DNA of 64,000 nt, from sequence record PQ799574.1. One strand, given 5' to 3'. The notes beneath the pieces were generated by a model. It saw nothing but the letters and a program-made list of their open reading frames with translations. It ran no database searches and was not told the origin of the DNA. Positions 86-64,000 of this stretch are shown in pieces. Both the position numbers and the translations under genes were made by a program. This stretch comes from Escherichia phage vB_EcoM_Maryam. Numbering within the stretch: the stretch's first letter is position 1; each line of letters starts with the position of its first letter.

Positions 86-199
86 TCACATAAATCCAAA
101 GTAAACGTTTAATACATCAATCATTAAAACGATTGGGAATATACTCAAAACAACTAAAATTATAATTATATTCCATATAGCTTTAATAATCTTTTTCAT
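86..199 (-). CDS. small hydrophobic protein (37 aa)
   Basis: Internal ATG of the 82-aa track ORF (which begins with TTG); GGAGG RBS 8 nt upstream; early promoter at 228-257. Confidence 0.4.
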   Translation of the reverse strand: MKKIIKAIWNIIIILVVLSIFPIVLMIDVLNVYFGFM

Positions 200-227
200 T
201 TTGTGTTCCTCCGTGGTTGATAGGGTA

Positions 228-257
228 ATAATACCACAGAGGAACAGTCTTGTAAAC
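228..257 (-). promoter_or_regulatory. T4-type early promoter (GTTTACA-N17-TATTAT)
   Basis: Reverse complement reads GTTTACAagactgttcctctgtggTATTAT. Confidence 0.45.
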
Positions 258-463
258 AACTTTTTTAAAAATATTCGTAATAAATGTGAATACCAATCAC
301 TACTGCCGAAACTTGCGCAACCCACCACGCACAAGCAATAAGTACAGAATTAAAAATTTTCATAATAACCTCATCACAAAAGTAAATGTTAAACAAATTA
401 CTGGAATACTAATTAACCAAACAAAACACCACCACAATGAACTCATAGTTCAATCTCAGCGAT

Positions 464-518
464 TTTCATTTTATTCTCCAAATCTGTATCAGTAGTTGAT
501 AGTTGTATAGTACCACGG
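464..518. repeat. 55-nt repeated promoter/leader cassette, copy 1 (identical copy at 27672-27726)
   Basis: Exact match by eye over about 55 nt. Confidence 0.7.
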
Positions 519-538
519 TCCTTGTGGTATGTAAACCA
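509..538 (-). promoter_or_regulatory. T4-type early promoter with palindromic spacer (PeSL-like)
   Basis: GTTTACAtaccacaaggaccgtggTACTAT on the minus strand. Confidence 0.5.
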
Positions 539-551
539 TTTTGTGAAATTT

Positions 552-1109
552 TTAAATGGAAAGATACCATCCATTGTAGTTGCTTTTTCTTACAACCTTA
601 CGAAGGTCTTCTCTATCACCGATGAACTTCGGAGTGTACTGGATGACACCTGGATGAATTTCTTTAGTGTTGAATATAATTATACAGTCCGCGACCTGGT
701 GATTTAGAATGGGCCCTAGATTTATTCCAGAACCATATGGATACTCTCCGCTGCATCCTGTTGTTACAGAAATCCAACGTGAGTCAGTTTGATGTGTCTT
801 AACTTCTACACGGAGCCCGCAATATTTTGGATGTGCTAAAACATCCCATGCATATGTGTACGGATCATTGACATCTTCTTGGCCTTTATTGACATATCCG
901 CTTAGCCAATCTGCTACAAAAAACTCTGCGTACACAGCGATACGGCATCTTTCGATAACTTCTGTCTTATCCTGATTTGGGTTTTGTTTTAAAGAGTATC
1001 TTGCAGTATCAGCAATTTTGACCTTCATTTCACCAGTCAAGTCACTGTTCGATAGGGTAAATGTCGGAATCTGAAATAGTCTCTGTAGCCCCGGATTCGT
1101 TTTCTGCAT
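552..1109 (-). CDS. denB: endonuclease IV (DenB-like), 185 aa
   Basis: Length and position downstream of rIIB match T4 denB; recalled sequence similarity. Confidence 0.7.
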   Translation of the reverse strand: MQKTNPGLQRLFQIPTFTLSNSDLTGEMKVKIADTARYSLKQNPNQDKTEVIERCRIAVYAEFFVADWLSGYVNKGQEDVNDPYTYAWDVLAHPKYCGLRVEVKTHQTDSRWISVTTGCSGEYPYGSGINLGPILNHQVADCIIIFNTKEIHPGVIQYTPKFIGDREDLRKVVRKSNYNGWYLSI

Positions 1110-4774: not shown

Positions 4775-4804
4775 ATTATACCACATCCTTGTGGTAAAGT
4801 AAAC
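4775..4804 (-). promoter_or_regulatory. early promoter upstream of rIIA.1/rIIA
   Basis: GTTTAC-N17-TATAAT with palindromic spacer CCACAaggatGTGG. Confidence 0.5.
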
Positions 4805-8163: not shown

Positions 8164-8445
8164 TTAATTAAACATTGGAGCGATACGTTTCAGAAGAGTA
8201 GCAGCACCTTTAGCGAATTTTACATCATGAAAAACAGTTTCTTCTTCTGTAACAACTCGAACTTTAATATTTTCACAATCCCAATTTTTACGAACAATCT
8301 TCAAAAGCTGCAGTAAATCTTTACATTCAGCAATATCGATAACACATCCACGAGAATCTTCCATTATCGCACGATAACCGTAAGCCATACCATAATCGTT
8401 GAAAGATTGCTCGATGATAATTAAGTTTTCCATTTTATTCTCCAA
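8164..8445 (-). CDS. hypothetical protein (93 aa)
   Basis: ORF with GGAGAATAAAATG initiation region. Confidence 0.45.
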   Translation of the reverse strand: MENKMENLIIIEQSFNDYGMAYGYRAIMEDSRGCVIDIAECKDLLQLLKIVRKNWDCENIKVRVVTEEETVFHDVKFAKGAATLLKRIAPMFN

Positions 8446-8484
8446 GTTGTTTTCTGTATCAGTAGTTGATATTGATATAGTACC

Positions 8485-8513
8485 ATAATCAACTACTGAT
8501 GTATATAGTTTTA
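8485..8513 (-). promoter_or_regulatory. early promoter variant (TATACA-N17-TACTAT)
   Basis: Shares the leader sequence family with 509-538 and 27717-27746. Confidence 0.4.
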
Positions 8514-8530
8514 TGAAAAAATTTTAAACT

Positions 8531-9022
8531 TTATGCATAGCGAGCTTTGCTGTAGTGTTTAATCCAACTTTCAGGAATGACTTTGTATGTTCCTAAAAAT
8601 ACCGCGTTGTATAACTTAACGCCATCTTCTACCCATTGATCAGTAATGTATGCACACATAGCGCGAGTACGGTTAACAACACCTTCCTCACCTTCAGTAA
8701 ATTCAAACTCATAAGGAGCAACGAACTTGATAGCTTGACCGAGTTTCCACTTAAAGTCTACACCTACATGCGAAGTATCAATCGTTTCAATTCCTTTAGC
8801 GGGAACAGCTTTCAAAAACGCAGGCTCAAGAAATTTCCATCGAACATAACCAAACTGAGGTTTAGACATTCCATCTTTAGGAATGATACGCACTTTTACT
8901 TCAGAATCTTCATCTTTAACACCATGTTTAAGCTGAATGCTTACGACTTCAACCAATTTTCCTGCTGCTTTAGAACGGGATTTATCAGATACACGAGCAA
9001 TTTCACCGATATTAATATTCAT
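8531..9022 (-). CDS. MotB-like protein (163 aa), paralogue of 9096-9596
   Basis: Size and position match T4 motB; C-terminal motif ITDQWVEDGV shared with the adjacent ORF. Confidence 0.45.
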   Translation of the reverse strand: MNINIGEIARVSDKSRSKAAGKLVEVVSIQLKHGVKDEDSEVKVRIIPKDGMSKPQFGYVRWKFLEPAFLKAVPAKGIETIDTSHVGVDFKWKLGQAIKFVAPYEFEFTEGEEGVVNRTRAMCAYITDQWVEDGVKLYNAVFLGTYKVIPESWIKHYSKARYA

Positions 9023-9095
9023 AATTATCTCTCACTTGTTAAAAAGATTTTATACTCCGCAGGACCATTATACTCTGGTCCCAAGAGTTTGTAAA

Positions 9096-9596
9096 CTAGC
9101 TTACACGAACATTAATCACTGCGCTGCGAGGAACTACGGAGTACTCTCCAGCATGAACTACGTTCAGAAGTTCAACACCATCTTCAATCCACTGATCAGT
9201 TACCCAACCGCCAATCGGATTCGCGAATGGACGACGAATATAAACTGCCTTACACAACAAATCAGTCGGGTCTTCAATTTTTTCAACTGGTGTTACATAC
9301 ATAGAAACTAAATCCATATCAATATGGGATTTTTCTTGTTCTTCTTTTTCAATTTCTGTCAATAAATTGAAATCTTCTTCATAGATGATGAATGATGATA
9401 CCCTTCCATAATAGTTTCTAATTTCCATGTACACTGTACCAATGAGAATTCCGCTATTAACACTAATAACAGTAAAAGGATATCCGCCAGTTGTACCAAG
9501 AAGTTCCCAAAACTTGCTATCAGTCGTATTCGACATTGTCTGGAAATCAATTTCAGATGGTTTTTTCATTTGATACGTAGTATTAATTTTAATCAT
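9096..9596 (-). CDS. MotB-like paralogue (166 aa)
   Basis: C-terminal motif VTDQWIEDGV shared with 8531-9022. Confidence 0.45.
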   Translation of the reverse strand: MIKINTTYQMKKPSEIDFQTMSNTTDSKFWELLGTTGGYPFTVISVNSGILIGTVYMEIRNYYGRVSSFIIYEEDFNLLTEIEKEEQEKSHIDMDLVSMYVTPVEKIEDPTDLLCKAVYIRRPFANPIGGWVTDQWIEDGVELLNVVHAGEYSVVPRSAVINVRVS

Positions 9597-9605
9597 AATT
9601 TTCCT

Positions 9606-10118
9606 TTAATCTAAGGTAATAAAGCCTTTTAATTCGGCATGCGATTTGCGAAACATTACTTGATGCCCACCAATGATAACTTGATCATCTGGCACTTCAT
9701 AAATCGCAATGTACATTCCACGATCTTTTAAGTCTTCACGCTCTTCTCGAGTAAACCATCTCATTATATCATATTCACTAGCGAAAGCAAAATGATATAA
9801 TGCAATAAACCACAATGGAATATAATTTTCAATTCGTGAATAATCTTTATTCCATTTAGTTTTAATAGCATCATTAGCATTTTCAACTAATAACTTATCA
9901 TCGTGTGGAATAGGAATACTTTCATGACTTTCATAATCATTGCTATGATGATGAAATGATGATGAATTAATACCGCAAAATTTTAGCCAAGTTCGAGTTT
10001 TCATAGAATCAAATCCACGATAAGGAGTTGATTGAACACATAACTCTTGCCTAATTTTCATTATACCACTATCATCATTTAATGCGCTAAACGATGATTC
10101 AACACGATAAATTTTCAT
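9606..10118 (-). CDS. hypothetical protein (170 aa)
   Basis: Start moved to internal ATG (10116-10118) with GAGGA RBS; the track start overlaps a promoter. Confidence 0.45.
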   Translation of the reverse strand: MKIYRVESSFSALNDDSGIMKIRQELCVQSTPYRGFDSMKTRTWLKFCGINSSSFHHHSNDYESHESIPIPHDDKLLVENANDAIKTKWNKDYSRIENYIPLWFIALYHFAFASEYDIMRWFTREEREDLKDRGMYIAIYEVPDDQVIIGGHQVMFRKSHAELKGFITLD

Positions 10119-10145
10119 TTTATTATCCTCAGTAGCTATGGTGTT

Positions 10146-10175
10146 ATAATACCACAACTAACCGAGGAAGTAAAC
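10146..10175 (-). promoter_or_regulatory. early promoter (GTTTACT-N17-TATTAT)
   Basis: Consensus hexamers; leader CTACTGAGGATAATAAAATG follows. Confidence 0.45.
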
Positions 10176-10181
10176 AACTTT

Positions 10182-10865
10182 TTATCGTTTTGTTGGAAGA
10201 GATAGAGGATCGCACTCTTCCTCTGATGGAGCGTCTTCAAGACCCATCGCATAGCGCAAAGCATACTTCATCATCAGGATGTCTTTCGCACAGTCATGAA
10301 TAGAATCATGCGCAACGAATCCATCTAAAGTTCCCTTTGGAAGAGGACATGTGGTCATATCACGAACAAGCAGAAGTGCTTCAATTCTGGTACGAATATC
10401 ACGCTGATTCCAGAATTTACATGGTTCTAACTTAAATGTGTCAAGCTCATTCTCAGATACACCATTAAGGCGTTGAATATCACGAATGAGATCGACTAAA
10501 ATTGGAAAATCAAACGACATTCCACGGCACCAGCCTTGAGATTTCCAAGGATCGATATTATGTGCATTGATGTAATCATTAAATTTCGCAATACCGTCGA
10601 TAGTGCTTACATCTTCATCGGACGGTGCAATATTTTTTCGAGCTTCAGGAGACTGATTTTTCCACCATTCGATAGTGCTTTTAGTAAAAAGACGGTGTCC
10701 TTTTTGGCTTTTTAAATCAAATTTGATTTTAATGCCGCGTGAAACTAATTCATCAAATGTTTCAACTACTTCTGGGTTAGGGTCAAAAGCAATTACAGCT
10801 AAATCAATAACAGCTGCTTTTTCACCACTTCCCATTGTTTCAAAATCTATAATAAAATCAAACAT
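10182..10865 (-). CDS. dexA: exonuclease A (DnaQ-like 3'-5' exonuclease), 227 aa
   Basis: Length identical to T4 DexA; DnaQ-like exo I motif DFETMG. Confidence 0.8.
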   Translation of the reverse strand: MFDFIIDFETMGSGEKAAVIDLAVIAFDPNPEVVETFDELVSRGIKIKFDLKSQKGHRLFTKSTIEWWKNQSPEARKNIAPSDEDVSTIDGIAKFNDYINAHNIDPWKSQGWCRGMSFDFPILVDLIRDIQRLNGVSENELDTFKLEPCKFWNQRDIRTRIEALLLVRDMTTCPLPKGTLDGFVAHDSIHDCAKDILMMKYALRYAMGLEDAPSEEECDPLSLPTKR

Positions 10866-20014: not shown

Positions 20015-20179
20015 TTACTCTTCTTTTTCTTTAGATTCCTCTTTTTTCTTTTTAGGAATCTGTTCAGGACCTTTATTTACTACAGCACCTGATGTTGTTC
20101 CAGTAGAGATATTTTCAGGATTACCACCTGAATCTCCAGCGACCATATCTTCTTTAATAAATTCTTTATATGTTTTCAT
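20015..20179 (-). CDS. small acidic/lysine-rich protein (54 aa)
   Basis: My own translation (below track cutoff); TAATATG coupling to upstream ORF. Confidence 0.35.
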   Translation of the reverse strand: MKTYKEFIKEDMVAGDSGGNPENISTGTTSGAVVNKGPEQIPKKKKEESKEKEE

Positions 20180-20225
20180 ATTAACCTCTATTCATAAAAG
20201 CATTAAAAATTTGGTCATCAATAGA
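20177..20225. repeat. 49-nt direct repeat at the 3' end of a 61.x-cluster gene, copy 1
   Basis: 46 of 49 nt identical to 20535-20583. Confidence 0.7.
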
Positions 20226-20537
20226 TGGCGCAGTAATATTTTCTGCATCATTTAGCAAATCATTAATTTCATCAGATAGCATAACACATGTACCTTTATT
20301 TCCTGTAATTGTTACTGCACAATTACGAACGTTTTCTTTATCAAATTTTAGGTTAATATTTTCGTAGTGAAAATCCTTTAATGCCGAATATATCTTTAAA
20401 ATGAAATTGTCTTTTACTACAATAAACCCAACCTCACTATTAAAACGCGGTTCATGGAAACTGTAATAAACCTTTTCATCTATAAAATCGTATGAAATTT
20501 TTTCCATTTTTAAATATGAAAATTCAGAACTATACAT
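20181..20537 (-). CDS. hypothetical protein (118 aa); C-terminal 16 aa duplicated from the next gene
   Basis: Shared C-terminus SIDDQIFNAFMN(R/K)G and 49-nt DNA repeat. Confidence 0.5.
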   Translation of the reverse strand: MYSSEFSYLKMEKISYDFIDEKVYYSFHEPRFNSEVGFIVVKDNFILKIYSALKDFHYENINLKFDKENVRNCAVTITGNKGTCVMLSDEINDLLNDAENITAPSIDDQIFNAFMNRG

Positions 20538-20583
20538 ATTAACCTTTATTCATAAAAGCATTAAAAATTTGATCGTCAATAGA
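20535..20583. repeat. 49-nt direct repeat, copy 2
   Basis: 46 of 49 nt identical to 20177-20225. Confidence 0.7.
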
Positions 20584-21466: not shown

Positions 21467-21526
21467 GATAATCTCCTCAGTAGTTTATGTTTATATAGTA
21501 TCTCAATTTCCAACAAAAGTAAACAG

Positions 21527-21826
21527 CTATTTTAAAACTTCTGCGTAATCACATGTTACAAACTGTTTCTCTAGCTTAACGATTTTACGAAAATACCTTT
21601 TATACTGACGAATCTGCCTCTTCGTAGGACGTACAGCAAACTTAATAAATTCCACTCGACCAAATGGAGGACTTTCTTCTGCTGGAATATCTAACACCAA
21701 TTCCCACGTATCTGCAATAAGTGCTTTGAATTGAGTATTTTTCCTGACGTTATACGGAGTAGGTTTAAATAAAACAATATGCATATTATCCTCGGCAATC
21801 CACTTCGCACACTTTCTTGTCATCAA
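21527..21826 (-). CDS. hypothetical protein (99 aa), 61.4-like
   Basis: ORF and position. Confidence 0.4.
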   Translation of the reverse strand: MMTRKCAKWIAEDNMHIVLFKPTPYNVRKNTQFKALIADTWELVLDIPAEESPPFGRVEFIKFAVRPTKRQIRQYKRYFRKIVKLEKQFVTCDYAEVLK

Positions 21827-27442: not shown

Positions 27443-27679
27443 TCAAATGCAAGTAGTAATTACTCCAGTAGTGCTTATGCAGGTATTACCCATTTGCACA
27501 CCTAAAGATCCATTTGTATTCACATGAAGATTATCATCAATTTTAACTGATATTTTACCATTAGTGTGAATAACGGTGCTAGATTTAATCACAGGTTGAG
27601 TATCATTTTCAACACTAATAAATGGAACTGCTACTAATGCAACTAAACAAACTGCTAAGCATCCCATAACAATTTTCAT
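27443..27679 (-). CDS. small secreted/membrane protein (78 aa)
   Basis: ATG with GGAGAATAAA RBS; N-terminal hydrophobic segment; repeated promoter cassette upstream. Confidence 0.5.
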   Translation of the reverse strand: MKIVMGCLAVCLVALVAVPFISVENDTQPVIKSSTVIHTNGKISVKIDDNLHVNTNGSLGVQMGNTCISTTGVITTCI

Positions 27680-27726
27680 TTTATTCTCCAAATCTGTATC
27701 AGTAGTTGATAGTTGTATAGTACCAC
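27672..27726. repeat. 55-nt repeated promoter/leader cassette, copy 2
   Basis: Exact match to 464-518. Confidence 0.7.
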
Positions 27727-27746
27727 AGAAGAACAGTCTTGTAAAC
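27717..27746 (-). promoter_or_regulatory. early promoter (PeSL-like), second copy of the repeated cassette
   Basis: GTTTACA-N17-TACTAT; 55-nt repeat shared with 464-518. Confidence 0.5.
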
Positions 27747-27823
27747 AGTTTTGTGAAAATTTTTTAGGGAATTCTAAAGGTCCAGAATCATCTGTTTTTC
27801 ATAAGTATAGATTTATATTACTT

Positions 27824-27850
27824 GTATGAAAAAGGGACCCGGAGGTCCCT
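27824..27850 (-). terminator. intrinsic terminator after gene 43
   Basis: GGGACC-UCCG-GGUCCC plus U-run. Confidence 0.7.
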
Positions 27851-27862
27851 AGATTTATTCTA

Positions 27863-30558
27863 TCAGCCAAACAGGAAGTCTAACGAAGCTTTTTCTTCAT
27901 AGTCCATACCAGCCGATTCACACATGCCTGCAAGCGGTTTAACAAACGATTTTTGGAACAAAGTTGAGTAGTCAATCCAAGATAGTACATCAGAACGAAT
28001 TTCTTTTGGAAGTTCTGTACCCGACGGCCAAGCAATGCACTTGTCGCCAAATGGATTTCCTTCACGTAATGGAAGAACCATTACCTTATTTCCATCCAAA
28101 ATTGGAGCTACACCCAGACCACTAACAGCTCGACGATAAGTTAGCACACCACGAATATGGAACGGGCATTTAAATCCTGGCCAACCTTTATCATCATATT
28201 TCGCTATATCGTTCGCAGTTTTTACTTCAGCAATAACTTTATAGTCAAGTTGACGATATTCTTTCTCGAAGTTCTTGTAATATTCTTGGACAGACTCTTC
28301 ACCTTCCTGAAGAATACGACGAATACTTTCTTCAAGAGCTTCTTGAACTGCTTTAGGCGTTGAACTTTGCTGAGTTTCCATACCCATGATTTTTAGATGC
28401 GGTTCAGCAAAACGCTTATCTTCCATATCATATACGTTCAGAGCATAACGCTTTTTCGCTTTCCAAAATCCACCAACGCCCTTTGAACCAAGTGGAGGGC
28501 AAGAAATAGCTTCACGGTCCATATGCATCAGATGCTCGCGGTTATTCATATAATCACATAACTCACGATATGCAACATCAATCATAGGTTCCATCTTTTT
28601 CTTACCGAACTGATTCATGAATTCAACTAAATCGTTCTGCTCTTTGAATCGGTCAAGACCAACTTTTTCAATAACTTTATCTACACAAACATATACCGAA
28701 TCAGTATCACCTGCTGCAATGAAATCTTCGCCATTAGTTCCGCACACTTTATTCAGATACTCATTAATTTTACGAGCAATCCACTGAATACCAACTTGGC
28801 CGAAAATTGTGATAGCAGTAGCATTTCGCAAATCATAGTAACGGAAATGAATATTACCAAGAGCACCGTAAAGGCTGTTAATAAGAATTTTACGGTTCAG
28901 CTGATTTGTATTAGCAAGTGTAGCCGCTTTTTCACATTCTTCAATCAAACTATTGAGAACAGATTCAGTATAATTCGATAGTTCATTTAAGAAATCATCA
29001 CTGAACTTAACATATCGTTCAACTTCAGGTTTAGTTGAACAAGACCCTGCGCCTTTCATAATAATCTTTTTAATAGCTTCGGCATTCATTTCTTCAGCGA
29101 ACATTTTCTTTTTCCAATCTTTACGCTGGAAAAATACTTTAGCGATTTCCTTTGGAATGATACCTTCTTGATGCTTATCGTACATCCATCCATTCGGAGA
29201 ACAAGAATATTCATCACTCGGTTTAGGAGCTGTTCCTGCGATATATTCATGAATTGGATGAACTTTAAACTGACCACGAATAGTCTCAGGACTAATGTTA
29301 ACCTGACGAATAATGCTCGGATACAGAGACGTCAAGTCAAAACTCATAATATATCGACGAGCAATTGGTTTAGGTTCAAATACAAATGCACCCGGAAAAC
29401 TCTGTTTAACGTGCGAACCTTGTTGAGGAATAACCTTATGTTCACCTTTCAATGAGTTAAAAATAATAGCATCCCAGGTTTTAATAGGACTCATTACACC
29501 AGAAAAAGGCATTTTAGCGTAATAAGACATACTTAAAACTAGATCGATAAACCCGCGAATTTTATCAATTGCTTGAACTGATTCTACGTCAATGATGTTA
29601 TAACTAATGTATCGTTGATGATTAGTCTCACGAAGTTTATTAATAGGACCGTCGTATGGTAATTTACCTTTTTTGGTTTCATGCTGAGCAACTGATTCCA
29701 AAGAGAATGACGGCAAATTAGTAAATGCGAATTTCTTATACAAATCTAAATAATCAAGAATAGATACGCCATCAATAGAATAAATTTCTTTGCTACCGTA
29801 CATATTTTGGATAAGTTTAGATTTTACTCGACCGATTGGAGAGAAGCGTTTCATACTACGTTCACCGAGAACCATTTTAACGCGATTCATGATATACGGA
29901 ACGTCAAATCCCTCAATATTCCAACCAGTAAAAATAGCAGGTCGTTTCTGTTCCCAGAGATTGATATATTCCATGAGCATATCACGCTCATTATCGAATG
30001 GCATATAAATTACTCGGTCAAGAATTTCTTGAGGAACTTCATCACCACCTTCACAGTCAAGCTTAGCAGCTAACTTTGCATCCCATTTTGATACTGAACC
30101 ATACATTGAATTCAAAAGGTCGAAAACATAAAAACGATCATCAATTGAATCGTAATGAGTGATAGCATCAATTTCATATTCAGCTTTCATTGGGTCAGGA
30201 AATTTATCACCAGTAACCTCAATGTCACAGTTAGCTACACGAACAAATTTTCGGTCATAAACAATTTCTGAACCGTATGTATCACTGATAAAGCGAGTTT
30301 AAAATCGTTCATACCGAGAGCTTCGAGACCGATGTCTTCCATTCGTTTCATCCAATCTCGAGCATCTTTCATTGATGGAAATTTTTGAGGAGCGCAGTTT
30401 TTACCATAGATGTCTTTGTACTTTGACTCTTCCTTACAATGCCTAAACATAGTTGGAAGATATTCTACTTCACGAGTACGTTCCTTTCCATTTTCATCAA
30501 TATAACGTTCAACAATATTATTTCCGACTGTTTCAATAGAGATATAAAATTCTTTCAT
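27863..30558 (-). CDS. 43: DNA polymerase gp43 (family B), reading frame broken by an apparent 1-nt deletion near 30289
   Basis: 107-aa N-terminal ORF (30235-30558) plus 775-aa ORF (27863-30190); the frame of the large ORF stays open upstream to about 30290; fragments sum to the 898 aa of T4 gp43. Confidence 0.85.
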
Positions 30559-31255: not shown

Positions 31256-31801
31256 TTACCATTCCAATGCTAGTTTTTTGAGTTGTTTCTGTTCTTTTAC
31301 GTTCTTAGTCACTTCTTTCAAAAAATCATCCGTGACTAAACCTTTTAGTTCTTTTAATACTAAAGGAAGTTTTCCATTTTTAGTAAGAATTGATTTATAG
31401 TTAATTGCATCATTTGTATTAACTTGATACCACTTAGCAAGTAACTTAATAATCAATACTTCGGTGGAATCTTCAACCAGTTTTGCCCATTTACCGTATC
31501 TTTTACCACGAGGAACTGCAGCCATTAGATAATTAAAATGAGCTTCATCACTTAAGCCTGATCCAATTAAATTCATAGCATATACAGCTGGCATGCACTC
31601 TGGAAATTGTGATAATGCATTTTCAACCATGAATTTTGAATAATCTTTTTGAGCAATAGAGCATTTAGTTTTATTATTGATAGCTCCAATTATTTCAAAA
31701 AATTCATTTTCAGCTTTTTCTTTAAAAGAATCAGCAGCGGATTGGACAGCTGTCCAATCTTTTGAATACCAAGCAAGTAGGAAAAGATTATGTATGCCCA
31801 T
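31256..31801 (-). CDS. 62: clamp-loader subunit gp62 (181 aa), 5' end possibly altered
   Basis: Position next to regA; about 6 aa shorter than T4 gp62 as I recall it; in-frame TAA directly upstream of the ATG. Confidence 0.75.
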
Positions 31802-34398: not shown

Positions 34399-34416
34399 AA
34401 GGGGCCGAAGCCCCTC
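34399..34416 (-). other. intercistronic UUCG hairpin between genes 37 and 38, next to the gp38 RBS
   Basis: GGGGC-UUCG-GCCCC directly upstream of GGAGG. Confidence 0.4.
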
Positions 34417-34419
34417 TTA

Positions 34420-37400
34420 TTATTTTAACAATGATTTAACTAATGCTTTAAGTTCTTCGATTTCTGATTTAAGTTCTGCAATTTCTGCAGTATGCTCATT
34501 GATTGCAGCTGTATTTAAACCAATTACACCGTTATAGTTCAAACGAAGTAAAGCTTCGCCATCAGGGTCACCTTCAACTAATTCTGGTAAAATAGCTTGA
34601 ACTTCTTGAGCAATTAAACCGGCGTTAGGTTCCCATTTCTGATTGCCTTCTTCATCTAGGCCTCGCTTCTGCATATAAGTGTAACCGTTAATTTTGGAAA
34701 GCTTCTCAGAAGCATTTTCAAATTTAACAAGGTCTTTTTTAACACGAATATCAGAACGGACATAAACATCTCGAACAAATGTGGAATAGGCATCGCTCTG
34801 TTGGACTAAATGACCAAAAGAAATAATAGCTCTTCCTTGTTCAGTCCACAAAGCACCAGTGGTATCCCAAAGACCTTCATGGAGATGGTAAGCGGACGAC
34901 CATGAAGCAATATGCATTCCATTTGCAACCATATTAATTCGCCCATCACCGCCATGAACTAATCCAGTATCATTATCACCAATAACAAGACATGGTCCAG
35001 TCCACACCGGGTCACCACCGCCAGCTGATAATCTTGCTCCGGTTTGAACCATGTTAGGAACATACAGAACTCCAGTGTGGTGGAATTCATAGATAGCTTG
35101 TGGGTCAGAACCGTTTTCCTGGTTACCTACACGAATAATACCTTGTGCCCAGTTATTAGTAATGCGACGCATACCAAAATCAACGCTAGATATGTATCCT
35201 TCATTCGTAATAGCAGATTTTCCTTTAATAATAGGATAATAACTATCATTACCAACATTACCAAAATCTACAAATATCGGAGCTTCTTGTCGCCATTGGT
35301 TTCCCCAATCGCCAGCCTGGTGCGCAGTCCATTGTGTACCGTTTATATGAAGGCGGTCTCTATTAAAATTAAATGTTCCTTGACCTTGAGGAGAAAGCGA
35401 TATTTCGCCGTTATTTGTTATGTATACACCACCCTGTGTAATGTAACTGTAAAAACCTAGACCGTTGTCGCCGCCACCTTTGCCTATATACCAGTTATTT
35501 GTACCACCTACATCACTACGGATATGTGATGAAGCACCTCCGCCAGCAGTTAAAACGAGAGCATCATTGCCTGCTGATAAAGTCAATTTACCAGTCATCG
35601 TGTCGCCTTCTTTAGAAACACGAGTAGCTATTGCATCGCGAATATTTGTGGTTTCTCCCGCAGAAGTAAACGATTTCCAAATATCTGAGAAAATATTACC
35701 ATTACGAGCAATAGTAGCTTCACCGCCGCCGACTTGAACGTTATCGGGGAAATTAACTGTACCGTCTTGATTAAAACGAGACGTATGGCCTTGTGAACCA
35801 TCTTCTTTTAAATGATGTAAAACAAATGTACCCGAATTAATTTCAGTACCTAAAGACCAAACAGCTTTACTGTTTAAAAACTTCTGTTTAACAATAGGAT
35901 AATATTTACTTACTGCGTCATCATCGATTTCCTGGAAAATAGGAGCTGCTTGAACATATTGAATATCATAACCACCAGCGCCAGCGCCGTGACCAGTAAA
36001 TTTAATATATCCGTTTGCTGCGAACGTATTGTAACTTGATTGTAAATCTGGAATAGTAACTTTACCAGTATCTAAAGCCATACTAAACGGGCGAAGTGGA
36101 CCGATATCACCATGTTTACCTTCACCATAAGCAGTTGGAATAATATGAAGACTGCCTTCTGAACGTCTAAAAATAGCTCCATAATCTGCGTTCCAAATGC
36201 GAAGAGCATTCACTGCTCCAGATGAAATTTCGCCTGTTGTGTGAACTCCTCTATTTCCAGCAGTAACACCAGATGATTCAAATGAACCGTTAACGTTCAT
36301 TTCTACTTCACCTGTTGTAAGTCTTTGAATATAGCTCATCCAGCTAGTTGCATCGGAAATTTCCATGACATTTTTGCGATTACCTTCACTAGGAATAGTA
36401 AATGTATTACCCCACACGGAAATTGTCATATTATCAACTGAACTACTACCAGTTGTGTTACCTCTAAACATCAGTGTAGAAGCATTATTTCTACCATCGA
36501 TATTAACAGAACCACCAATAACGTCAATATTACCAGGAGTAACTAACAAACCGCCATGAGTATTAATGTTTGTGGTACCCTTGCCGCGGAAATAATGATG
36601 ATAGTTACCGCCTTGATAATATCCTAAAAGAGTCTGACCATCTCCAAACGCGTTATTATCGTGATATGTCACGACAGTAGCAAGAGCATAATTTTCAGTT
36701 GGAGGAGTAGTTAAATCGGTTCCGTTAGTAGAATATCCAGCTACAAATTTTCTTAGGCTAGTTGTTTCGCTAGGACTAAATAAAAACGTTTTTGTTCCAT
36801 TATTAACGCTAAAATAATATCCATCTTGATGCCATTTAAATCCAGTATCATTATCTCCTAAAGCAATACTAGATTGTCCTAATATTGAATAATCTTTATT
36901 ACCAGGTGTTAAACCAATAGAAATTGAGTGACTTGATTTAATTCCGCCGCTCCAAGTAAATGACCAAAGATAGGTGTCAAGTCCATCACCTGCATACCAA
37001 GTTATTCCATCATTATCTTTAACTTCATGGAAAATACCAGAACCAACGGCATTACGCATGACACGAAGATGATTAATAGCAGTAGTGCTTTCAGACAATG
37101 GAACATTGTCTGCCATCGAATAGATGTCATAATCACCCGTAGATTTATTATTAGTAATGACTTTGTTGGTCAGAATTTGTGGAGACGAAATAGATTTCCA
37201 TGCTGATACTTCAGGTGAAGTAAATAGTCCACTGCCTGAAAATGCATAAGTGCTTTCGCTACCAGCGGCGTAGTCTTGAACCCTGATATTAAGTACTTGT
37301 GTAGTTAAACCATCATTAGCCGGGGCATAAATGATTCCGCGTTCGCGACTATTGTTATCGAAAAAACGAACATGCGCTGTACCTGAACTTTTTGTAATAA

Positions 37401-39582: not shown

Positions 39583-42500
39583 TTATTCAACCCATTCAAA
39601 TTTAACAGTTTTATTCACTGGGTCAGGAATAATACGAACATTACCAATTCGCAAGAAATCACGAATAGTAAGATTACCCATTATAGCATTATCAGATGGT
39701 AAAGCACCGATATCAGATGGCTGAGGAGGGTTACCTCCGTCAAATACCTGAACAAAACTTGACCAAGAGTTTTTGGTTTTCTGCCATGTGCGTGTCCAAC
39801 GAGTGGTACGCGCTTCTGGTGTTGTTGGATAAGTAATCCAATCTTGGTAAAGCGAATCAAGTGTGTTACCAAACTGAGTCAATGTACCAGGAGATTTAAC
39901 TTCTTCGCCACGTTCTAAGTATGGAAGTCCAGTCACTTCATTAGTTTTTTCAACCATTTTAAAATAACCAGGGAATTGATTATAAGTGGCTGAATCGTTA
40001 ATATCAATTGACCAGAATCCTACTGTATCAGTTGTTGGTGCGCGGGTATATAAATCAGATGTTTTAGTGCCCTGAGAACGAATTCTCGAGTTAACAGTCA
40101 AACCGCCTGAATTTATAGTAGCACCTTTGGCAATAATTAAGCTTTCGCCAATCGTTACTTGGCCAGATGCATTATTAATAGCTAAAGGACGTAATCCATT
40201 AAATCCACCAGTCTGATCACCCGATGCAGTAAGCATAAAATTCGTTACTGATCCATCATTGCGAACAATGAAACCATAATTTCCGTTAATAGCACGGAAA
40301 GCATTTGCGCTTCGAGAAATAATTTCACCAGTTGCAGTGACTGAATTACCAAATGTTGCTACACCATTTGCATTCAATGTTCCTGAAGCATTAACATTTA
40401 TAGGTGTTACTGTACCGTTGATATTAAATGTTATATTTCCGGCTTTATTGCGCTGAGAATAAAAATGACTAGATGTTTCATCACTAACTTCAAATACGGT
40501 AGAACGTGTTGTATCTAATTCCCCACTAAATTGATTTCCCCACACTCTAACAGTCATCGTTTGGGCTGGGTTTGTTCCAGTTTGAGGTCCTTTCTCAAAA
40601 ATCAATCGAGTTGCTGTTCCAGTATTAGAAATAGTTAATGTACTATTTGCTGAAACTGATCCACCGAACGTAGCAGTACTAGATGATACAAGAGGGGCAC
40701 TCAGATTCGTTTGTTGGGTTAAGGTTAGTGAACCATTAACTGTCTGCGCAATGTCCCTACGAATGAACTGAGATGAATCTAGACCATCCAATAAATTACT
40801 ATCTACAGCTTTTGCTTTTAATGGCAAATAATTTGCTAATACACGGTTTAATTCATATGGTGATACTGCATAACCATTTTTCTCATATGATTCTAATGGC
40901 TGTGTTGAACCTACCGTATCATTACCAACAAACGTTAATGAACCAGAAGAAGTTTTAACAAAGCCCCTTATCGCAGTAGTTGCTGCCCAAGTAGATTCGC
41001 TCTGCACAATCCATTTTAAATTTTTTGGAGATACAGCAGTATTTGCTGACGTTCCAGTCACAGTTTCAGACTGAGTTGCAACTTTAATAACACCTTCTTG
41101 TGCTTCAGTAGATTTAGTACCTAAAAGCTTTTTAGGAGTTATTAAAACATTATCTAATGTTCCTGCAGCAGCTTCGACCTGTGTAGCTACACGAAGTGTA
41201 CCACGCTGTGTCTCATTTGCTTCAAGAATATCAAGGGTATAATGGTCCCAGAGAGTTCCTGATTCAACTAATCCAGATAGAGCAACAACAGAAGTACGAT
41301 CAGTACTATTAAATCTGGTTTTAATTTTTAATGGTGTAGAGATACGAGTATCGTCGACGCCTGCGTCGAATTCAACCTGTGTAGCAATTTCAGCTATACC
41401 ACTTAAACTTTCAGTTGCTCTACGGTCATTTAAAGTTTTAGGAGTGACTGCACGAGTATAGTCAGTTCCTGTGTTAACTTCACTTTGCGTAGCAATTTCA
41501 ATTAAACCAATTCTTGCATCAGTTGATGTCTTTTTATGTAACGTTTCTGGCGTTACAACCGCATTTGCCCATCCTTCTTGGCTTTGTCCAGCAATTACTT
41601 CACTTTCAACTGCTAAAATTACTGCGCCTTGTTGCGTTGGAGTAGCTTTATACTGATCCAAAGCTTTAGGTGAAACAACTAAATTATTAGTGTTTTTATT
41701 ATAAACATTCGTACCATTTAATTCACGACTAGAAGCTGGAGTAGCACCTGCAGTAGATACAAAGGTTACAATACCAGATAATGATTCAGAACCTTGACGA
41801 GCTTGAAGCTTTTTAGGAGTGATGATTGTAGTATCATCGGTTCCTGCATTAGTTTCTTGCTGCGTAGCAATTTCTGCGACACCTCTACGAGTTTCTGTAG
41901 CAGTTCTTTCATTCAGCTTTTTAGGAGTAATGATAAGGTCATCTGCAAAAGAGAATGTGGTGTTCTGATTCACTTGAGCAGTAGTTGCTATTCTTGCAAT
42001 ACCTCTACGAGTTTCTGTAGCAGTACGATTAGCTAACGTTTCTGGAGTAATTGCCAATTCTTTTTGTGGAGAATTTTCTAAATCAGCATTAGCTTGAGCT
42101 TGTGTAGCTAAAGCAATTACACCTAATCTTGCTCTAGTAGAATCATTTAAAGAATCTACTCTTTCTACGGTTGGAACATTTTGCTGTACAACCCAATATT
42201 TTCCGTCAGAATCTTCTATATAAGCAAGCTCTAAAACTGGAACATAATTAGTTTCACCGTTAAAAACTAATTCTTGAACTGTAACCCACTCAGCTTCAGG
42301 TGGATATTCTGAGCGTTTTGGGAATTGCAGCAATTGAACTGAAGAAGCAATTTTATCTTCACCTGCAGCTTTGATTTTAACCGTTTGTCCTTTTCTCATG
42401 TAATTCATAGAAATTTTGACAGTATCACCAACAGAAATATCAGTCGGAAGCTGAAGTTCAATTGTTTGGGTTGTTCCATTATTCGCGCCAAATACCATGA

Positions 42501-47362: not shown

Positions 47363-47384
47363 TCAAAAATTTTTTCACAAAACG

Positions 47385-47414
47385 GTTTACATCCTTGTCC
47401 TTCCATGGTACTAT
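47385..47414 (+). promoter_or_regulatory. early promoter (PeSL-like) downstream of the gene 32 terminator
   Basis: GTTTACAtccttgtccttccatggTACTAT. Confidence 0.5.
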
Positions 47415-47457
47415 ACAACTATCGGCAATACTGCTAATAATTAAAGAGGAAAATAAT

Positions 47458-48098: not shown

Positions 48099-48359
48099 AT
48101 GACTAAAGATGATTTCCTGGATGCGGTAGAAAAAGCTAGTGAGAAATTTGAAGTGATGGGTGTACGGGTCCATAAAGACAGAAATTACGGGCTCGATATT
48201 CAAACGTATTCATTATGGCTTGTGGGTGAACACAGTCTTGTAACCAGTTTAGTTATGGGTGTCGATACCTATCCTCTATTGGTTAAGTTCAGAAGTATGG
48301 AAAAGGCTACTAAAGAAATGATTAAGCTTGGTAAGTGGCTCGATAAAATTCAAAAATAA
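48099..48359 (+). CDS. hypothetical protein (86 aa)
   Basis: ORF; ATG start chosen over TTG. Confidence 0.4.
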   Translation: MTKDDFLDAVEKASEKFEVMGVRVHKDRNYGLDIQTYSLWLVGEHSLVTSLVMGVDTYPLLVKFRSMEKATKEMIKLGKWLDKIQK

Positions 48360-48361
48360 TT

Positions 48362-48391
48362 GTTTACAACAGGGTAGTAGTGTGATACTAT
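48362..48391 (+). promoter_or_regulatory. early promoter (GTTTACA-N17-TACTAT)
   Basis: Inverted repeat agggta...taccct spans the -10 region. Confidence 0.5.
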
Positions 48392-48419
48392 TACCCTATC
48401 AACTACTGAGGAGAATAAA

Positions 48420-48662
48420 ATGAGATTACAACGCCAGAGCATCAAAGATTCAGAAGTTAGAGGTAAATGGTATTTTAATATCATCGGTAAAGATTCTGAG
48501 CTCGTTGAAAAAGCTGAACATCTTTTACGTGATATGGGATGGGAAGATGAATGTGATGGATGTCCTCTTTATGAAGACGGAGAAAGCGCAGGATTCTGGA
48601 TTTACCATTCTGACGTTGAACAGTTTAAAGCTGATTGGAAAATTGTGAAAAAGTCTGTTTGA
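48420..48662 (+). CDS. hypothetical protein (80 aa)
   Basis: Early promoter and GGAGAATAAAATG initiation region upstream. Confidence 0.5.
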   Translation: MRLQRQSIKDSEVRGKWYFNIIGKDSELVEKAEHLLRDMGWEDECDGCPLYEDGESAGFWIYHSDVEQFKADWKIVKKSV

Positions 48663-60626: not shown

Positions 60627-60902
60627 ATGTTTCCGACTTACTCTAAAATCGTAGAAGTAGTGTTTAGCCAAATTATCGCTAATAACATGTTTGAAAAGCT
60701 TGATAATGCAGCTGAACTTCGAATCCATGCTCAAGTGACTCATGTATTAAACACTTTGCTTCCAGACCAGGTGGATTCTGTTGCCATTACGCTGTATCCA
60801 GGTTCCGCGCATATCATTGTCGTATTCGGTCTTGATGCTGAGTTAGTTATCAAAGGCGACATTCGCTTTGAATCTCAAACTGCGGAATTCAAAGCGATTT
60901 AA
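60627..60902 (+). CDS. hypothetical protein (91 aa)
   Basis: ATG with GAGGTAAAT RBS. Confidence 0.45.
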   Translation: MFPTYSKIVEVVFSQIIANNMFEKLDNAAELRIHAQVTHVLNTLLPDQVDSVAITLYPGSAHIIVVFGLDAELVIKGDIRFESQTAEFKAI

Positions 60903-60905
60903 TGG

Positions 60906-60935
60906 TTTACTTTACGGTAGAGTTGTGATATTATA
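60906..60935 (+). promoter_or_regulatory. early promoter (GTTTACT-N17-TATTAT)
   Basis: Consensus hexamers. Confidence 0.45.
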
Positions 60936-60963
60936 GCTCTACCAAACAAATGAGGAAAACAAA

Positions 60964-61200
60964 ATGCTAAGTGAAAAACCAATTACTGTTAAAGAATTCC
61001 AAGAAAAAGTTAAACTATTTGCTCAGGAATTGGTAAATAAGGTTTCTGAACGATTTCCTGAAACATCGGTTCGTGTTATTACCGAAACTCCTCGTTCAGT
61101 ATTAGTAATTGTGAATCCAGGTGATGGCGATCAAATATCGCATCTTAAACTGGATTTTGATGGATTAGTTGAAGCACAAAGGGTGTATGGCGTACTATGA
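60964..61200 (+). CDS. hypothetical protein (78 aa)
   Basis: Early promoter at 60906-60935; GAGGAAAA RBS. Confidence 0.45.
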   Translation: MLSEKPITVKEFQEKVKLFAQELVNKVSERFPETSVRVITETPRSVLVIVNPGDGDQISHLKLDFDGLVEAQRVYGVL

Positions 61201-63746: not shown

Positions 63747-63775
63747 GGACTCCTTCGGGAGTCCTTTTTTATTTT
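63747..63775 (+). terminator. intrinsic terminator
   Basis: GGACUCC-UUCG-GGAGUCC plus UUUUUUAUUUU. Confidence 0.75.
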
Positions 63776-63794
63776 CCAAAGATTGCACAAAGTT

Positions 63795-63824
63795 GTTTAC
63801 AGTACGGTTCCTTTGTGATAGTAT
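63795..63824 (+). promoter_or_regulatory. early promoter (GTTTACA-N17-TAGTAT)
   Basis: Consensus -35; weaker -10. Confidence 0.4.
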
Positions 63825-63850
63825 TATCTTACACAAACAAAGGAGAATAA

Positions 63851-64000
63851 AATGAAAACGATTAATCTGAACGCTACAGTTAAAACTAAATGCTTCAATG
63901 GTAAATATGATGAAACTATGTGGTTCTTAATGGCAGTTGAAGGTGATATTATTGAAGTAGAAACAACAGAAGGTATGGGAACAGATTTCACCTTTACAAT
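63851..64000 (+). CDS. hypothetical protein, N-terminal part (runs off window end)
   Basis: AAAGGAGAATAAAATG initiation region; early promoter upstream. Confidence 0.45.

Follow-up and report, generated by a model that had tools for sequence, protein, structure and literature searches.

A family of putative immediate-early promoter/leader cassettes in the early region of a T4-like Escherichia phage

The early region of Escherichia phage vB_EcoM_Maryam (PQ799574.1; the 64,000-nt stretch analysed here is called the window throughout) carries, at three minus-strand loci, copies of one promoter and leader unit that ends in a candidate target of the T4 endoribonuclease RegB. In our judgement, to which we attach a probability of about 85%, these copies are paralogous immediate-early expression cassettes that are related by shared descent and continue to exchange sequence, with the firing of the promoters, their start points and the cleavage by RegB predicted from consensus sequences and the literature. 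The cassettes are T4 early promoter/leader units of a class that has already been described as promoter-early stem-loop (PeSL) cassettes, and the accepted picture is unchanged. What is added here is that the 3' end of the cassette is exactly the RegB optimum, so that the cassette is predicted to encode both its switch-on and its switch-off, and that the 8-codon open reading frame (ORF) of T4 and of this phage is identified as the remnant of an 87-aa gene. Indications of concerted evolution between cassettes 27 kb apart are a further, modest addition. The case also illustrates that regulatory cassettes can be recognised from sequence alone by a reader without tools, and it offers a worked example of T4-like phages swapping small accessory genes behind standard expression units.

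Three copies of an early promoter and leader unit

By its sequence matches the window belongs to a T4-like phage (Tequatrovirus) with a genome of 65% A+T. Its first 31.8 kb carry, in this order, ndd.4, denB, rIIB, rIIA, 39, motB, dda, 56, 41, uvsX, 42, imm, 43 and 62, and each of the genes named is encoded on the minus strand. A preliminary description of this DNA had reported a 55-nt identity between positions 464-518 and 27672-27726. Extending the match base by base confirmed the exact length and the second interval and shifted the first by 2 nt, to 462-516, with both copies on the minus strand. A 50-nt core of this repeat is found at both places in the window, and no second occurrence arose in any of 100 dinucleotide-preserving shuffles. 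The diverged third copy that had been suspected at about 8450-8500 was located at 8431-8534, likewise on the minus strand, and is 66-74% identical to copies 1 and 2 across the whole cassette; the repeat finder ties copies 1 and 2 both to this third copy (~8427-8526) and to a fourth (210-275).

Each cassette consists of four parts, namely an A/T-rich upstream tract, an early promoter, a leader of ~30-35 nt and the sequence GGAGAATAAAATG, which closes the leader in all three copies, in agreement with the shared leader end noticed earlier. Cassette 1 (467-564, minus strand; nhmmer E 1e-23) lies just after denB at the site of the T4 ndd.6 promoter, where it was aligned with its T4 orthologue and coincides with a promoter annotated in X75802. 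It comprises an A/T-rich tract at 564-537, the -35 element GTTTACA at 536-530, a spacer at 529-513, the -10 element TACTAT at 512-507 and a leader at 506-470, with GGAGAATAAAA at 479-469 and the ATG at 469-467. Cassette 2 (27677-27774, minus strand; nhmmer E 4e-26) is situated between the gene 43 terminator and imm.1 and has GTTTACA at 27746-27740, TACTAT at 27722-27717, a leader at 27716-27680, GGAGAATAAAA at 27689-27679 and its ATG at 27679-27677. Cassette 3 (8431-8534, minus strand), supported by profile search, alignment with T4 and folding, is found between motB and cef, with a -35 element ATATACA at 8506-8500, TACTAT at 8482-8477, GGAGAATAAAA at 8443-8433 and the ATG at 8433-8431.

The promoter reads GTTTACA-N17-(TGG)TACTAT, in which the TGn-extended -10 element is TGGTACTAT, and the A/T-rich tracts TTTAAAAATTTCACAAAA, CTAAAAAATTTTCACAAAA and TTTAAAATTTTTTCATAAAA precede the three -35 elements. 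The form GTTTACA-N17-TACTAT had been ascribed to every copy; it holds for copies 1 and 2, whereas copy 3 has ATATACA-N17-TACTAT, a poor -35 element with one mismatch to TTTACW (TATACA). The stretch of ~26 nt from the -10 element to GGAG (ACAACTATCAACTACTGATACAGATTT) shows no difference between copies 1 and 2, and copy 3 departs from it only slightly. A general promoter scan returned 38 sites against 43 expected and is uninformative in DNA as AT-rich as this.

In T4 all three cassettes occupy identical loci, upstream of ndd.6, imm.1 and cef, and agree nearly base for base with those of the window; the T4 reference and hundreds of independent genomes contain all three. In the T4 record X75802, as deposited, the copy-1 (ndd.6) and ndd.4 sites are each annotated as promoters, including their -35 and -10 signals.

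A graded family in the window and beyond

The number of copies had been put at three, which proved too low. With a profile built from five cassettes, an nhmmer search of the window at E < 1e-4 returned 10 members, which range from the near-identical copies 1 and 2 to early promoters of the ordinary kind. The fourth copy, at the ndd.4 promoter (197-285, minus strand; called cassette 0 here), was recovered by the profile search and is annotated as a promoter in X75802; its -35 element lies at 257-251, its -10 element TATTAT at 233-228 and its ATG at 199-197, and its leader reads TACCCTATCAACCACGGAGGAACACAAAATG; the distance between this cassette and cassette 1 is 279 nt. On the plus strand, cassette 4 (48334-48422) has GTTTACA at 48362-48368, TACTAT at 48386-48391, the leader TACCCTATCAACTACTGA and, at 48410-48420, GGAGAATAAAA, which is followed by an 80-aa ORF with its ATG at 48420. 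Another plus-strand member is situated downstream of gene 32 (47364-47457; GTTTACA-N17-TACTAT-ACAACTATC..., E 4e-10) and has the upstream tract of cassettes 1 and 2 with a different leader tail, and a further one at 63774-63854 (plus strand; E 7e-8) ends in GGAGAATAAAATG. The weaker members are found at 10116-10184 (minus strand; GTTTACT-N17-TATTAT ... CTACTGAGGATAATAAAATG, E 7e-8), before the spackle gene at 21472-21540 (minus strand; GTTTACT-N17-TACTAT ... AACTACTGAGGAG, E 2e-5) and at 60900-60966 (plus strand; GTTTACT-N17-TATTAT, E 9e-6).

In other T-even phages the -10 element and leader of the copies also precede motA and a gene of the internal-protein locus. Scanning IMG/VR with the 19-nt leader core yielded 21 loci, about half of which are unrelated coding matches, and the remainder include these motA and internal-protein-locus cassettes.

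Inverted repeats in and around the cassettes

An inverted repeat had been noted in the spacer of each copy. It is clear in copy 1 (TACCAC-N7-GTGGTA) and weak in copy 2, whereas the arms in copy 3, located in spacer and leader respectively, flank the -10 element as a perfect 13-bp inverted repeat (8458-8470 / 8488-8500). The hairpin that these arms can form (-20.2 kcal/mol, z -5.2) extends across the -10 element and lacks a T run, and the inverted repeat is kept in T4, T2, HY03 and PYPS2T. In the 104 nt upstream of copy 1 no significant stem-loop was found (z -1.0). Among the regions upstream of the three copies, a canonical stem-loop is present only before copy 2; it is the terminator of gene 43, a hairpin GGGACCTCCGGGTCCC with a T run at 27835-27850 (minus strand), ~90 nt upstream of the -35 element of cassette 2 in a region with z -3.1. 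A 5-bp hairpin at the 5' end of the leader is no better than shuffled sequences (-1.9 kcal/mol, z -0.5).

As a separate observation, the spacers of the minus-strand early promoters at 4775-4804, 507-536 and 9067-9096 contain an inverted repeat of 5-7 bp whose pairing involves the TGn/-10 edge; examples are TACCACA-AGGA-TGTGGTA (4804) and ACTCT-N7-AGAGT (9096).

The leader end as a predicted RegB/S1 target

The first 11 nt of GGAGAATAAAATG coincide exactly with the optimal site for RegB/S1 cleavage given in the literature. According to Durand et al. (2006; PMC1702504), GGAGAAUAAAA is the sequence required for efficient cleavage by the T4 endoribonuclease RegB together with S1, and the general RegB consensus has been given as an 11-nt single-stranded GGAGRAYARAA (Uzan and Miller, 2010; PMC3014915). 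The pattern GGAGRAYARAA occurs five times in the 64-kb window against 0.4 expected, each time as GGAGAATAAAA, and all five instances stand directly after an early-type promoter and directly before an ATG, in the Shine-Dalgarno position. The 11 nt of the cassettes match the T4 consensus at every position, fall where translation of early genes is initiated and stay single-stranded in the predicted fold, and we infer that the leader ends of the cassettes are a target of RegB.

Among the 26 well-cleaved RegB sites in the accessible part of PMC1702504, none is named for ndd, and cef is not mentioned there. The accessible literature yielded no transcription-start, promoter-activity or RegB-cleavage data for the cassette sites, and nothing on ndd.6, imm.1 or cef was found in two T4 transcriptome papers.

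Gene turnover behind the cassettes

Comparison of the flanking genes across related phages, which had been suggested at the outset, shows that their content varies at every copy. Behind copy 1 only an 8-codon ORF had been recognised. This ORF (443-469, minus strand; MKIAEIEL) does exist, but it is no dead end, since its stop codon overlaps the ATG of ndd.6 as ATGA and would couple it to that gene; the genes actually served by cassette 1 are ndd.6 (446-360, 28 aa) and ndd.5 (363-265, 32 aa), which together cover 265-446 on the minus strand. An 87-aa gene ending in ...NSNEMKIAEIEL is intact behind copy 1 in a48, PYPS2T, AR1 and HY03, and in T4 and the window its codons 2-79 have been lost in frame, which fused the start codon to the last 8 codons. 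By this comparison the 8-codon ORF is a deletion remnant, with predicted translational coupling to ndd.6. In T2 and PP01 an unrelated 68-aa gene, flanked by TAAAATG, is found between the leader ATG and the 8-codon remnant. The candidate explanation that the ORF is a remnant of the imm.1 N-terminus, considered because both start with ATGAAAATCGCT, was rejected, as the octapeptide is the in-frame C-terminus of the 87-aa gene in a48, PYPS2T, AR1 and HY03.

Directly behind cassette 2 lies the 78-aa gene that had been reported at 27.7 kb (27443-27679, minus strand; phrog_4189, AR1_049 type). It is present in ~60% of Tequatrovirus records and is lacking in T4, where the cassette is fused directly to imm.1, and the insert is bounded on both sides by the 8-nt repeat ATGAAAAT. 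Cassette 3 is followed by an 89-aa gene (8164-8433, minus strand; phrog_3720); in T4 ~200 nt of this gene are deleted, and the junction falls at the start codon. Every one of these cargo genes is a member of a phage family whose function is unknown.

Between the window and T4, 11 indels were counted in the first 31.8 kb, two of which abut a cassette and nine of which do not; several of the latter fall in regions that contain homing endonuclease genes in T4 (mobA, segF, segA), and one looks like a tandem gene duplication between 49-nt direct repeats. The junctions of the indels behind the cassettes lie in 6-13 nt of microhomology within the SD/ATG-AAA motif rather than in the 50-100 nt of homology that the cassettes would offer, and those at copies 2 and 3 are start-codon microhomologies inside one transcription unit, with no joint between two cassettes. 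Such joints at the Shine-Dalgarno sequence and start codon probably persist because the next gene stays correctly expressed.

A homologue of the 89-aa gene in Klebsiella phage Roth67 (480-600) keeps GTTTACA-N17-TACTAT and GGAGAATAAAATG and lacks the leader middle and the 13-bp inverted repeat. This preservation of both ends only argues that the ends are functional parts and that the leader middle would have been carried along. Gene and cassette type appear to co-occur in another genomic context in this phage. The Roth67 homologue adjoins tRNA-Thr and acb1 (anti-CBASS), not motB and cef.

Mosaicism and co-variation between copies

The cassettes are mosaic with respect to one another. The leaders of cassettes 1 and 2 agree at 40 of 40 positions and their spacers at 6 of 17, and the spacer of cassette 2 is identical at 16 of 17 positions to that of cassette 0 at ndd.4. 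Chimeric forms occur in related phages as well: T2 combines the copy-2 promoter with a leader tail of the ndd.4 type, and AR1 and HY03 combine the copy-1 promoter with a leader of the ndd.4 type. Leader variants further co-vary in some of the genomes, with ACAG in both the ndd.6 and the imm.1 copy of the window and of ECP52, ACGG in both copies of T4 and PYPS2T, and an identical 3-nt deletion in both leaders of a48; discordant or chimeric leaders were seen in four of nine genomes (PP01, AR1, T2, HY03). The co-variation within genomes indicates recombination or gene conversion, as judged from these alignments. Concerted evolution of cassettes that are 27 kb apart is supported by it and not proven, since the sample is small (nine genomes with 2-3 variable positions).

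The simplest reading of the perfect 55-nt identity is that copy 1 has recently been converted by copy 2. The exact version of copy 1 in the window was found only in ECP52 and EO1, and the ACAG version of copy 2 occurs also in AR1, PP01, KRT47 and ESh33-type phages; this distribution points to a conversion of copy 1 by copy 2, of which direction and recent timing are probable and derived from the distribution of the two versions.

Proposed function and alternative explanations

If the cassettes act as their sequence elements suggest, host sigma-70 polymerase would fire from the promoter immediately after infection, and the GGAG of the leader would serve as the Shine-Dalgarno sequence of the first gene. 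The leader end, GGAGAAUAAAA followed by UG, would at the same time present an optimal RegB/S1 target, at which RegB would cut GG/AG and inactivate the message within minutes, and the net output would be a short, strong pulse of expression for the small gene behind the cassette. The cassette ends would be alike through common functional constraint, and the copies may exchange sequence via the very active homologous recombination of the phage; the identity of the unconstrained leader middle and the mosaic make-up of the cassettes would be due to shared descent and ongoing exchange. Genes are gained and lost in the slot behind each cassette, where junctions at SD/ATG-AAA would survive because the next gene stays correctly expressed.

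The resemblance might instead have arisen by purely functional convergence on the early-promoter and RegB/S1 consensus, without shared descent or exchange. Such convergence would fit the cassette ends, which are parts with known sequence requirements, are the sole parts kept in the Klebsiella phage homologue and are the only parts shared by the weaker family members. It does not account for the ~26 nt of ACAACTATCAACTACTGATACAGATTT, which have no known requirement and are yet as closely conserved among the three copies as described above, nor for derived variants, including the 3-nt deletion, that are common to both copies within a genome, nor for the clear chimeras, and we regard it as improbable. 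We give a slightly smaller chance to the view that the leader middle is itself a functional element, either a protein operator on the DNA or a 5'-terminal RNA structure, for early shut-off or mRNA stability. Its ~+1 to +20 region contains a partial palindrome, TATCA-N5-TGATA, which is found in at least four different early promoters across T-even phages; in copy 3 the segment is duplicated as the inverted 13-bp arm across the -10 element, with a highly significant potential for a hairpin or cruciform that is conserved in T4, T2, HY03 and PYPS2T; and the mechanism of early shut-off has been described as incompletely understood (PMC3014915). Against this stand the 5-bp leader hairpin, which does not exceed shuffles, the natural 3-nt deletions in a48, T2, PP01 and HY03 that break symmetry or spacing, the many early promoters of the window (most of them) without TATCA-N5-TGATA, and the distant homologue, which has neither the motif nor the inverted repeat. 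That the leader middle (~+1 to +22) might be the binding site of a phage factor, or a 5' RNA element, that switches off a subset of immediate-early promoters is accordingly a long shot, although, if true, it would bear on the unexplained abrupt shut-off of T4 early transcription.

The dispersal of the repeats beside variable small ORFs could also recall a mobile element, autonomous or non-autonomous, MITE-like or of the homing type, that inserts its own copies, all the more as a model with excised mini-circles has been published (PMC2839356). Terminal inverted repeats, target-site duplications and an associated transposase or endonuclease are, however, missing, Tequatrovirus genomes share the cassettes at orthologous, fixed positions, and the indels linked to homing endonucleases lie elsewhere, so that we consider a mobile element very improbable. 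Least probable of all, to a degree that we regard as negligible, is a chance similarity or an artefact of assembly or duplication. The high A+T content and two signs that the window may be imperfectly assembled, the gene 43 frameshift and the non-collinear junction near 31775, could be taken to favour it, but the shuffled sequences never produced a second copy, and the three copies recur in T4 and in hundreds of independent genomes. Related genomes, which might have exposed the repeats as chance AT-rich similarity, did nothing of the kind, and the comparative data exclude chance and artefact as well as a mobile element.

Relation to known systems

Read as paralogous expression cassettes, the copies can be set beside known systems of T4 and its relatives. 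T4-type phages have been described to carry PeSL cassettes (Arbiol et al., 2010, PMC2839356; Comeau et al., 2014, PMC4122927), with the T4/PST consensus TTTACW-N17-TAYWAT and, as the worked example, the ndd.4/ndd.5 exchange, which is next to copy 1 (PMC4122927). The likeness to PeSL cassettes that had been proposed holds for the promoter (TTTACA-N17-TACTAT in copies 1 and 2, TATACA-N17-TACTAT in copy 3), for the A/T-rich tract at the 5' side, for the 3' end of each cassette with its Shine-Dalgarno sequence and start codon, and for the variable ORFs, the cassettes being located in plastic early regions, where the small neighbouring genes have no known function and vary from one close relative to the next. 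The likeness is doubtful for the stem-loop, which in the published cassettes is a terminator upstream of the promoter and not an inverted repeat in the spacer. Here the upstream terminator stem-loop is missing at copy 1, the candidate at copy 2 is that of gene 43, ~90 nt away, and the hairpin of copy 3 overlaps the promoter. The indels also differ from the PeSL model in that they join start-codon microhomologies in one transcription unit, not two PeSLs.

T4 early promoters in general have an UP / -35 / TGn / -10 architecture that is read by the unmodified host sigma-70 polymerase (Hinton, 2010; PMC2988021). The cassettes share this architecture, with a -35 element GTTTAC(A/T), as well as the same genomic sites (ndd.6, ndd.4, imm.1, cef), and there is no essential difference; copies 1-3 stand out as a particularly close subgroup whose likeness extends into the initially transcribed region. 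Deletions between short homologies are likewise known in T4, for which PMC2839356 refers to Singer (1982) and Mosig (1998). The indels behind the cassettes resemble these in being bounded by direct repeats of 6-13 nt, such as ATGAAAAT and TAAAATG, and differ in that the repeats are the conserved Shine-Dalgarno and start-codon motif, so that the products keep the downstream gene expressed.

Genome setting and further repeats

To positions 1-1400, ~500 Tequatrovirus genomes match at 90-96% identity, and the segment at 27.3-28.0 kb matches KRT47, AR1 and PP01-type phages at 99% or more. For positions 1-1400, no database record gives a full-length match above ~96%, and other parts of the window reach at least 99%; the ndd-denB end of the genome would by these matches be a comparatively novel combination of alleles.

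Gene 43, which encodes the DNA polymerase (27863-30558), is split by a frameshift into a 107-aa N-terminal ORF (30235-30558), which departs from the gp43 frame after ...NDFKLA, and a 775-aa ORF (27863-30190). Since gene 43 is essential, the frameshift is likely a sequencing error. The window parallels T4 as far as ~31775, starting at T4 position 166.5 kb, passing the origin and reaching gene 62. Collinearity with T4 breaks at ~31770-31780, and the remaining part (~31775-64000) has the reverse orientation, with the arn/asiA/t region first, followed by genes 38-34, rnh, 59 and 32. The N-terminus encoded by the gene 62 ORF (31256-31801) is foreign. The junction is bridged in none of 50,697 phage records, and a search for a cassette there found none; a misassembly, a chimera or a genuine inversion might account for it.

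Several other repeats were observed in the window. At 20177-20225 and 20535-20583 lies a 49-nt direct repeat (94% identity) that spans the start of each of two neighbouring small genes on the minus strand and bounds a 310-nt segment that T4 lacks; from its sequence, 20177-20583 looks like a tandem gene duplication. The GC-rich hairpin AAGGGCCGAAGCCCTT (GGGC-UUCG-GCCC on the minus strand) is present in three terminator-like copies, at 1166-1181 after denB.1, at 1394-1410 after rIIB and at 34400-34425. Within the coding region of the long tail fibre gene 34, four diverged direct repeats of 68 nt, 62-75% identical to one another, occupy positions 41075-42051.
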